From a virus: a stretch of DNA of 37,164 nt. The stretch lies in IMG/VR virus record IMGVR_UViG_3300045988_130823; one strand, 5' to 3'. The stretch's first letter is position 1. Each line of letters starts with the position of its first letter. Shown in pieces: positions 33,767 through 34,359 of this stretch. Under the pieces are notes generated by a model. The model had not been told where the DNA came from. It saw nothing but the letters and a program-made list of their open reading frames with translations, and did not search any database. The translations under genes were made by a program, and so were the position numbers.

Positions 33767-33782
33767 GAAAGGAAGATATGAT

Positions 33783-33839
33783 ATGGAAAAAGCTGTAACG
33801 CTTGGTGCTGTACACACACACACACACACACACAAGTAG
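33783..33839 (+). CDS. Putative 18-codon leader ORF containing (CA)11
   Basis: AAGGAAG lies 7 nt before the ATG. Translation is MEKAVTLGAVHTHTHTHK. Confidence 0.35.
   Translation: MEKAVTLGAVHTHTHTHK
33813..33834. repeat. Dinucleotide microsatellite (CA)11
   Basis: Counted directly; perfect tract. Confidence 0.95.
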
Positions 33840-33873
33840 TTTTAAATAACAAGAAAATAGGAGGTGAGTTCTA

Positions 33874-34359
33874 ATGAGCGAGCCTCTAATTTTAACATTA
33901 AAGAGAAAAGTAGAAGAGTTAGAAAAAAGAAAAACAAATATGATAATTTATACAACTTCTGAACAGAGCTATAGTCATACGGGAAATAATATATATCTAC
34001 AAGAGCCTTTAAGGTTTCAAGGCAGCAGAGGGAATTCTGGAGATAAATTAACGTTTGAAACAAATGGAATTAAAATCGGAGCAGGAATAAATCATATAAA
34101 TGTAAAAGGAATTGTTACATTTATACATTCAGAATCCGATGGAAGGCCAGTGTATTTATATATTAGAAAAAATGGTAATATATCATCAACGCAAATTATG
34201 TATATGCAAACAACTCAACCATATACTATGGCGATATTTAAAGATTATATAGAAGTAGAAGAAGGAGATTTAATACAATTATATGTTGCAATGGATAATG
34301 CGAATTTTAAAACAGCTGGAAATACAGACAATCAATTAACAGTAGAAGTTGTAGATTAA
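33874..34359 (+). CDS. C1q/TNF-like jelly-roll protein (candidate receptor-binding tip)
   Basis: An N-terminal coiled coil is followed by a beta-rich domain (GINHINVKGIVTFIH...VYLYIRKNG...GDLIQLYV...NQLTVEVV). GGAGGTGA SD. Confidence 0.5.
   Translation: MSEPLILTLKRKVEELEKRKTNMIIYTTSEQSYSHTGNNIYLQEPLRFQGSRGNSGDKLTFETNGIKIGAGINHINVKGIVTFIHSESDGRPVYLYIRKNGNISSTQIMYMQTTQPYTMAIFKDYIEVEEGDLIQLYVAMDNANFKTAGNTDNQLTVEVVD

Follow-up and report, generated by a model that had tools for sequence, protein, structure and literature searches.

How could the number of repeat units in a microsatellite that lies between genes influence which tail-tip proteins a phage makes? The question is raised by a locus in IMG/VR virus record IMGVR_UViG_3300045988_130823, a stretch of 37,164 nucleotides (G+C 27%) that we call the window and whose coordinates are used throughout; contigs of relatives carry L-numbers and metagenomic proteins P-numbers. 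Two successive spacers between late genes of this window each hold a small leader open reading frame (ORF), preceded by a Shine-Dalgarno (SD) sequence and containing a perfect dinucleotide tract, (CA)11 in the first and (AG)8 in the second, and each spacer is followed by a gene for a small protein with a tail-tip-like fold or domain. We propose, with a probability of about 0.72, that these leader cassettes constitute slipped-strand, frame-dependent translational-coupling switches for accessory tips of the C1q/TNF-like and Gp10_C types.

The first cassette begins at the end of a gene of 122 amino acids (aa), whose TAA (33764-66) is overlapped by the SD-like sequence AAGAAAGGAAG (33765..33775, plus strand), located 7 nt 5' of an ATG at 33783. 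A preliminary description of the stretch had read from this ATG an SD-led leader of 18 codons passing through a perfect CA repeat, and both elements were recovered. The leader ORF, which is the frame-setting element, occupies 33783..33839 on the plus strand (MEKAVTLGAV-HTHTHTH-K; product MEKAVTLGAVHTHTHTHK), and Tandem Repeats Finder (TRF) delimits the perfect tract as (AC)11A at 33812..33834, which in (CA)11 notation is 33813-33834. A purine-rich SD 6-9 nt 5' of the leader ATG is found in all cassette variants seen. The downstream 161-aa gene starts at ATG 33874 and has an SD of its own, GGAGGTGA, at 33860-67.

A change of one unit in either tract alters the frame of the leader and the position of its stop relative to the downstream SD and AUG. 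When the CA outcomes were recomputed over n = 6-19 units, they agreed exactly with the three frames described earlier. With n mod 3 = 2, the class of the window's CA11, the leader ends at TAG 33837-39, 37 nt 5' of the ATG, and with n mod 3 = 0 it ends at TAA 33847-49, 27 nt 5' of the ATG; both of these uncoupled stops (33837..33849, plus strand) lie 5' of a predicted hairpin at the gene start, termed T1, whose SD helix begins at 33860. With n mod 3 = 1 the leader runs on through GGAGGTGA and ends 2 nt 5' of the ATG at a coupled TAA (33872..33874, plus strand) that overlaps ATG 33874 as TAATG.

The next spacer, upstream of the next tip gene, contains a second cassette of the same architecture, which is absent from the preliminary description. 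It consists of the SD AGAAAGGAAAG (34360..34370, plus strand), 7 nt 5' of an ATG, and a leader ORF of 21 codons in the window (34378..34443, plus strand; MKKMLKRKTVDTL-RERER-ATL, product MKKMLKRKTVDTLRERERATL) that encloses a perfect (AG)8 tract (34417..34432) within the intergenic spacer. With AG n mod 3 = 0 the leader crosses AGAGGTG and ends at TGA 34472-74, overlapping the downstream start as ATGA, and in the other two frames it ends 30 or 22 nt upstream of the start. The window's alleles, CA11 and AG8, are both in an uncoupled frame.

The earlier view that the CA tract is improbable by chance is well founded: the expected number of (CA)11 tracts in the window is ~4e-10, and the longest dinucleotide run was no more than 15 nt in 300 of 300 Markov shuffles. 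Other dinucleotide runs of at least 9 nt in the window are limited to (TA)n of up to 12 nt and the one (AG)8, and (AC)11A and (AG)8 are the sole GC-containing dinucleotide tracts across its 37 kb.

It had been suggested that repeat number be compared among related genomes and metagenomes, and it differs there: tract length varies among near-identical relatives and spans 8-16 units across loci. Seven assemblies aligned over 33401-34929 (1.53 kb) show one substitution, as against CA tracts of 10, 11, 12 and 13 units and AG tracts of 8, 9, 10, 11 and 12 units, each haplotype being distinct. Four assemblies share CA13 and carry AG tracts of 8, 9, 10 and 11 units; as CA remains constant while AG changes, the two tracts vary independently. 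In window-type relatives the CA tract has 10, 11, 12, 13 or 15 units in otherwise identical flanks, and diverged cassettes carry 8-16 CA units or, in L023, (AG)19. Gene callers annotate only the coupled-frame (long) leaders, so called genes sample that class: the window-type CA leader is called with n = 10 on 113 contigs, n = 13 on 49, n = 16 on 18 and n = 4 once, and the window-type AG leader with n = 9 on 3 contigs, n = 12 on 36 and n = 15 on 8. The coupled CA frame was found in L002, L003, L004, L007, L025, L027 and L051-L054. The toggle proposed earlier, between a short uncoupled leader and one that ends on the start codon of the tip gene, is supported by these data, with n variable, coupled n = 10, 13 and 16 present and TAATG conserved. 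A natural control is provided by an interrupted AG tract, AGAGAGAAAGAGAGAG (at ~3042), which is identical in six contigs from six samples (L031-L036). Both tracts are hypervariable, and the pattern among these sequences points to slippage as the likely cause.

An assembly artefact is an unlikely source of this variation, as tracts of 16-38 nt are probably shorter than a typical read, allele lengths range over 8-16 units and the interrupted tract does not vary. Contig ends or Ns fall within the tract in L022, L039 and L030, which is compatible with heterogeneity and is weak evidence. Two metagenomic proteins, P0140 and P0114, represent a CA allele contracted to n = 4 and another that carries an HTHS interruption and is fixed in the coupled frame.

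What would a leader ending on the start codon accomplish? Folding of -30..+30 around 43 plus-strand starts, with the opening cost calculated over -20..+3, gave a median opening cost of ~3.6 kcal/mol. The start at 33874 ranked first of the 43, with a minimum free energy (MFE) of -17.2 kcal/mol and an opening cost of 17.3 kcal/mol, and lies in hairpin T1 (33854..33893, plus strand), in which the SD GGAGGU (33860-65) is held in the 5' arm, AUG 33874 sits at the apical loop/stem and codons 3-7 form the 3' arm. Ranked third was the start at 34471 (MFE -14.1 kcal/mol for the 60-nt segment; opening 14.4 kcal/mol), which lies in hairpin T2 (34456..34482, plus strand), where a 10-bp stem, AAGAGGUGUC/GAUACCUCUU, holds the SD and places AUG 34471 at the loop edge. 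In longer folds compared with shuffles, T1 had z = -3.7 and T2 z = -5.8 (68-nt fold, -16.2 kcal/mol). Ranks 2 and 4 are apparently a terminator and a mis-called GTG start. A strong hairpin with a U-run (AAAAAAAGAAGAUUCAC...GUGGAUCUUUUUUU, -15.6 kcal/mol) at 20226-20275 covers the called GTG start 20256 and is probably an intrinsic terminator, unless the ORF start was mis-called.

In silico, only genes linked to a cassette have their SD and AUG sequestered in this manner. All seven distinct cassette-linked sites with MS(E/K)P starts are locked (MFE -16.4 to -17.8 kcal/mol; opening 14.8-18.0 kcal/mol), and three MSEPxIL paralogues that lack a cassette and directly follow a fibre gene have open starts (0.3-3.1 kcal/mol), because their synonymous codons differ (AGT GAA CCA TTG versus AGC GAG CCT CTA). 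Further locks of other sequence occur in L031 (MSKPL...), in L048 (with two cassettes before MIPLY... genes) and in L049, both T1-like and T2-like forms being represented in the latter two contigs. Across eight T1 variants, 97.5% of pair cells are kept, with one compensatory change from A-U to G-C and five one-sided compatible changes. In the short contig L048 the two CA cassettes (554-908 and 1261-1813) stand ahead of two different MIPLY... tip genes, and an XhlA/holin-like gene precedes the second cassette; the long-frame leaders of this contig cross the entire hairpin and end ~16 nt inside the gene.

These elements can be assembled into a mechanism of four steps. Slipped-strand mispairing in replication would shift the CA or AG count by whole units. 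With the tract inside a short, efficiently initiated leader, the unit count would then fix the frame 3' of the tract. The hairpin would pair the SD with early codons of the tip gene (codons 3-7 in T1, codons 1-4 in T2) and hold the AUG at the loop, so that a free 30S subunit would initiate poorly. Lastly, in the ON state (CA n mod 3 = 1 or AG n mod 3 = 0), ribosomes translating the leader would melt the 5' arm and end on TAATG or ATGA, where the terminated ribosomes may reinitiate or leave the SD exposed, and the tip gene would be expressed. The helicase of the ribosome reaches about +11 nt from the P site. In the remaining frames, which end 22-37 nt upstream, a terminating ribosome would touch no more than 1-2 bp of the stem and the lock would stay closed, giving an OFF or low state. 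Two such independent switches behind a constitutive tip would yield mixed progeny with differing tip sets, a form of host-range bet-hedging. The polymorphism, the frames and the predicted sequestration that make up the first three steps can be read from the sequences; from them we infer the fourth step and the biological role.

The preliminary description had left the consequence of coupling as either termination-reinitiation or occlusion of the SD. With a hairpin holding the SD and AUG at each start, reinitiation or unlocking becomes much likelier, and occlusion of the SD is disfavoured.

Several observations weigh against the proposed switch and have to be set beside it. The assignment of ON and OFF derives from thermodynamic prediction and from analogy, and could be the reverse. 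Covariation in T1 is weak, with 64 of 500 shuffles scoring equally, because the variant sequences are too similar to one another. The tract polymorphism is observed between samples and not within one clone. The receptor-binding role of the small proteins is deduced from their folds and the gene order. Both gated genes keep good SDs, GGAGGTGA and AGAGGTG, making some leader-independent expression possible. The L031-L036 lineage has an uncoupled frame as its fixed state although its downstream gene is intact; under the switch model this gene would be permanently silenced unless basal expression is enough. Finally, a frame design of the kind described would arise by chance in ~9% of random spacers.

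The strength and good spacing of the two SDs, together with the intact gene in L031-L036, fit a model of reversed polarity, in which ribosomes in the coupled frame occlude the SD and lower initiation, and most expression of the tip gene comes, in the uncoupled frames, from its own SD. L018 (~3560, n = 16), in which a T-to-G change creates a TGA that kills the coupled frame, fits it as well. Against such a polarity, initiation independent of the leader should be very inefficient at locks with a predicted opening cost of 14-17 kcal/mol, and stop-start overlaps such as TAATG and ATGA are the classical arrangement for reinitiation; in the related mechanism that has been tested experimentally, that of Pil1, long leaders activate. 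We therefore regard reversed polarity as very unlikely.

The chance frequency of ~9% per spacer favours the view that the tracts are hypermutable microsatellites of no functional consequence, or else scars left by recombination between modules, with the small ORFs accidental, and the occurrence of identical cassettes before different tip genes (L051 compared with the window; L023 and L039) does indicate a recombination boundary. At such a frequency, the weight of the frame design rests on its recurrence and its coupling to the lock. The coupled frame recurs in four or more post-tract sequences that are unrelated to one another (TAATG, TAAT-ATG, ATGA and ATGTCTAA), and the TAATG design is kept in diverged cassettes. 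Neutrality is also hard to reconcile with the maintenance of long perfect tracts in dozens of diverged leader types, phage and chromosomal, with the conservation of the leader SD, ATG and pre-tract motif while the leader remainder diverges, with the strict co-occurrence of the cassette with a locked start or a terminator, and with the fact that the 37-kb window has no further GC-containing dinucleotide tract. We consider that it has hardly any chance of being correct.

The closest known system is that of the pili Pil1 and Pil3 of Streptococcus gallolyticus, in which a (GCAGA)n repeat lies in a leader peptide ORF, terminator attenuation has been proven and long leaders are ON (Danne et al. 2014, PMC3894217). 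As in the phage cassettes, a simple sequence repeat (SSR) lies inside an SD-led leader, the repeat number sets the leader stop relative to a stem-loop, ribosomes on the long leader melt that stem-loop, as they would in the phage, and the genes controlled encode surface adhesion structures. The differences are several. Pil1 has a pentanucleotide repeat and the phage dinucleotide CA and AG tracts; the stem-loop of Pil1 is a terminator at the 5' end of an operon, whereas that of the phage is an SD/AUG-sequestering hairpin between cistrons of a late operon; the long phage leader ends exactly on the next start codon, giving translational coupling, which the Pil1 leader does not; and two of three frames are ON in Pil1, compared with apparently one of three here. 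Pil1 is also bacterial rather than phage-borne.

Could the phage cassettes nonetheless work by attenuation of the Pil1 type? The hairpins would then be intrinsic terminators, the long leader would prevent termination, and repeat number would control how much the tip gene and all genes 3' of it are transcribed. Attenuation is the proven mechanism for Pil1, chromosomal leaders of the same family have textbook terminators (L040, L046), and T1 is followed by AAUUUUAA and its variant in L029 by UUUUAUUUU. T2, however, is followed by CAAAAG with no U-run, and a scan for intrinsic terminators was negative in both phage spacers. All the phage hairpins are formed by the SD and the opening codons of the gene and place the AUG at the loop, a signature of initiation control that a terminator would not need. 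In addition, both cassettes are intercistronic within the string of tail and lysis genes. Further along on the same strand come the genes for the holin and the endolysin, and the interval shows no convincing promoter; efficient termination in two of three frames at two sites would abolish lysis in most progeny. Attenuation is thus unlikely for the cassettes in general, while for T1 it is possible.

The cassettes belong to two large related leader families, each with dozens of N-terminal variants and many tails. The CA family follows the pattern x-[ST]LGAV-(HT)n-tail and the AG family x-[TS][LVI][DGE][TA][LV]-(RE)n-LHFS.IK-tail, and hybrids exist: L023 combines an AG leader with a T1 lock, the CA leader of L048 is paired with a T2-like lock, and P0258 reads NLGAV followed by (ER)n. 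For both repeat types, the pre-tract residues and nucleotides (TLGAV / CTTGGTGCTGT and TVDTL / GTTGATACTCTA) are far more conserved than the remainder of the leader. The corresponding sites are 33799-33811 and 34404-34416 in the window; [ST]LGAV in CA leaders and T[VI][DG]T[LV], SLEAV or NLGAV in AG leaders are near-invariant, and LHFS.IK after the tract is also conserved in AG leaders. This conservation may equally reflect a role of the nascent peptide, an influence of RNA or DNA structure on slippage, or recent shared ancestry.

Two of the leader tails were traced to bacterial chromosomal loci (L040-L045 and L046-L047). In L040-L045 (~2500-2780), leader DNA near-identical to that of the window lies ~180 nt upstream of genes for SpaA/MucBP/Cna_B adhesins of 1647-3417 aa. 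The leader in L040 is followed by a terminator stem of -23.1 kcal/mol and then CUACUUUUGCUGUUU, and the three frames end 39 nt before, 10 nt before and 1 nt inside the stem. The layout in L046-L047 is similar, with the leader 5' of the gene for a 404-aa protein and a pair of hairpins after it, of which one is a terminator. At these loci the terminator is positioned such that the unit count determines whether the leader ends ahead of it or within it. With a true terminator upstream of SpaA/Cna_B-type adhesins, the chromosomal loci (L040-L047) match Pil1/Pil3 closely, which implies that uncultured gut Clostridia harbor unrecognised Pil1-like phase-variable adhesins. The phage cassettes look like a translational derivative of this host attenuator family, with transfer conceivable in either direction. 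A broader proposal, to which we would give somewhat less than even odds, is that the CA/AG leader cassette is a portable contingency switch common to uncultured gut Clostridia, where it acts with a terminator on giant adhesins, and to their prophages, where it acts with an SD lock on tips. Were this so, both sides of the phage-host arms race at the cell surface would use one hypermutable device, the two tandem three-frame switches of the phage would provide up to nine heritable, reversible states of tail-tip expression, and the near-invariant x-L-[GDE]-[AT]-[VL] motif would have a function of its own, in slippage or as nascent peptide.

The genes around the cassettes are consistent with a tail tip. 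Their order is a Tal-like protein, a 176-aa fibre part, an 82-aa fibre domain, the 122-aa tip, the CA cassette with the 161-aa tip, the AG cassette with the 152-aa tip, the holin and the endolysin. The 176-aa proximal fibre protein (32626..33156, plus strand) has an N-terminal anchor-like motif and a coiled coil, with weak coiled-coil-type Pfam and PHROG tail matches, and in relatives its gene is fused with the next gene into fibre proteins of 281 aa or 568 aa. The 82-aa fibre C-terminal domain (33143..33391, plus strand) shares 62% identity (E 7e-30) with the C-terminal end of the collagen-like 568-aa fibre in L023, and its sequence also forms the end of the 281-aa fibre of L008 and L018; it is probably a docking platform for the tip proteins. 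The fibre shaft is divided between the 176-aa and 82-aa genes, which overlap by 14 nt. Within the overlap, 6 nt 5' of ATG 33143, sits a run of six G (33131-33136), and the window has no other G/C homopolymer that reaches 6 nt; this run is probably the SD of the 82-aa gene, a frameshift or slippage site being the alternative.

Next come the tip genes themselves. The first tip-like gene (122 aa; 33398..33766, plus strand) has no cassette, and its start opens at 4.0 kcal/mol. The gated 161-aa protein (33874..34359, plus strand) consists of an N-terminal helix (residues 5-19) and a jelly-roll head of the C1q/TNF type, a label given to it in the preliminary description and upheld by a fold match using AlphaFold2, Foldseek and BFVD. 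In Foldseek, an AlphaFold2 monomer model with a pLDDT of 89.8 matched PDB entries for knobs of phage spikes and fibres as well as for C1q/TNF domains, with E values from 3e-9 to about 5e-6. Phage knobs ranked highest, namely the phi812 spike knob 9eul (E 3e-9) and the fibre domains (CBDs) of cyanophages A4 and A-1(L); C1QL1-3, Caprin-2, RANKL, 4-1BBL and EDA followed at E 4e-7 to 5e-6, with target-normalised TM scores of 0.6-0.8, and BxpB/ExsFA was among the further matches. In BFVD the model matched heads of collagen-like and C1q phage fibres. The likeness is structural only, at 11-17% identity, and the protein has no Pfam family at E <=0.1. In some homologues the head is fused to a fibre N-terminal motif. 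In P0029 (171 aa), an N-terminus containing (YT/HT)n is joined to the 161-aa protein from residue 16 (MLYTHTHTHTHTSSFPEIACRVAGILEK...), which looks like a deletion or assembly chimera spanning the cassette.

The second gated protein, of 152 aa (34471..34929, plus strand), carries a Gp10_C baseplate/fibre-tip domain (Pfam PF21939, E 2.4e-27) and has matches to tail and tail-fibre families in PHROG. Where the backbone differs, the first tip gene has an unlocked start that overlaps the fibre gene (TAATG), and only additional tips stand behind cassettes. This arrangement suggests one constitutive tip accompanied by optional alternative tips whose expression would be stochastic. In L023, L039 and L051, identical cassettes that extend into the first few codons of the gene are followed by unrelated C-terminal domains, which makes the cassette a module boundary as well.

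The 161-aa protein is widespread, being indexed in 1138 collection blocks with the labels Clostridium sp. CAG:354 or Clostridia bacterium metagenome-assembled genomes (MAGs), and the presence of its gene on contigs of up to 1.7 Mb identifies the element as a prophage of an uncultured gut Clostridia lineage. Exact-pattern scans for the CA cassette returned one viral and one metagenome contig and none among species-representative genomes, and an AG-pattern scan of viral contigs gave no match; contigs of relatives were found far better via protein identity. A search of 50,697 phage records with 2.8 kb of the locus yielded nothing but an unrelated 76-nt match, indicating that no annotated relative among them carries the cassette, and Rfam had no match at E <=1 in 33300-34600.

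Three further readings of the locus were tried and rejected. A promoter-spacer model could invoke TTGGTG and TTGATA just 5' of the tracts, but the -10-like hexamers are at least 22-40 nt away and the spacer grows with n; a promoter scan found 49 sites versus 50 expected, no signal above background. Leader-tip fusion or programmed frameshifting fails in that no frame joins the leader to the tip gene. Nor is the coupled tail of the leader a remnant of the upstream fibre C-terminus, as the 281-aa fibre ends in ...EIITRREEK, unrelated to ...NNKKIGGEF.

How does the proposed switch compare with what is known of phages? Leader-peptide control of ermC and coat-replicase coupling in MS2 are cases of translational control via an SD-sequestering hairpin. 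As proposed here, the ribosome-binding site is base-paired and is freed when a ribosome on an upstream ORF occupies or melts the inhibitory arm, and stop-start overlap is a shared feature; the trigger in ermC and MS2 is physiological (drug-induced stalling, upstream translation), whereas here it would be a heritable, reversible change of frame. The invertible tail-fibre segments of Mu (Gin) and P1 (Cin) and the diversity-generating retroelement of Bordetella phage BPP-1 diversify host range. They, too, are programmed high-frequency mechanisms that produce sibling phages with different receptor-binding tips, by inversion in Gin and Cin and by mutagenic retrohoming in BPP-1, whereas slippage and translational logic would suffice here and neither a recombinase nor a reverse transcriptase would be needed.

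Hypermutable repeats are themselves known in phages. PolyG tracts were reportedly found by Sørensen and colleagues in 2021 in receptor-binding genes of Campylobacter phages. A recent preprint describes homopolymers in T2 agt and T4 rIIA and, from a scan restricted to homopolymers of at least 6 bp, an under-representation of SSRs in tail-fibre genes (Gomez et al. 2025, PMC12633550). These loci resemble the cassettes in having hypermutable repeats, heterogeneous progeny and bet-hedging and, in the Campylobacter phages, an effect on receptor binding. They differ in that the known repeats are homopolymers inside the affected gene that truncate its protein, whereas dinucleotide tracts of 16-23 nt lie here in separate leaders and the structural gene is never frameshifted.

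In our literature searches, no switch of phage tail genes by dinucleotide repeat, leader ORF or translational coupling came to light. Within the searchable literature, the cassettes would be the first case of dinucleotide-repeat phase variation of phage receptor-binding proteins and the first SSR-phased leader to act by translational coupling instead of a terminator. A switch that needs no enzyme could be a cheap and widespread host-range hedge for temperate phages of uncultured gut Firmicutes, and it would leave a signature that can be mined from metagenomes, consisting of an SD-led mini-ORF, the pre-tract motif, (CA)n or (AG)n and a locked start or terminator. Annotation and host-range prediction that ignore tract length would misjudge which tail-tip genes a prophage expresses. 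The cassette would also be a compact three-state stochastic switch usable in synthetic biology.

Other features of the window and its relatives lie outside the cassettes. Beyond ~6300 in L001-L003 the genes after the endolysin differ (His_Phos_1, an alpha/beta hydrolase or an 88-aa ORF), which suggests different integration contexts or variable cargo. A tRNA-Trp (CCA) gene at 22151-22225 stands between the packaging module of the prophage and its head module. Direct and inverted copies of TGTTACACC / GGTGTAAC repeats (8544-8572, 8724-8739 and ~8770-8830) surround a strongly structured region upstream of 8799 and look like iterons or operator sites of an origin or regulatory region. Lastly, a 63-bp tandem repeat at 24097-24231 (2.1 copies, 79% matches) falls mostly within a 90-aa ORF (23971..24243), where it encodes a lysine/glutamate-rich, coiled-coil-like segment.

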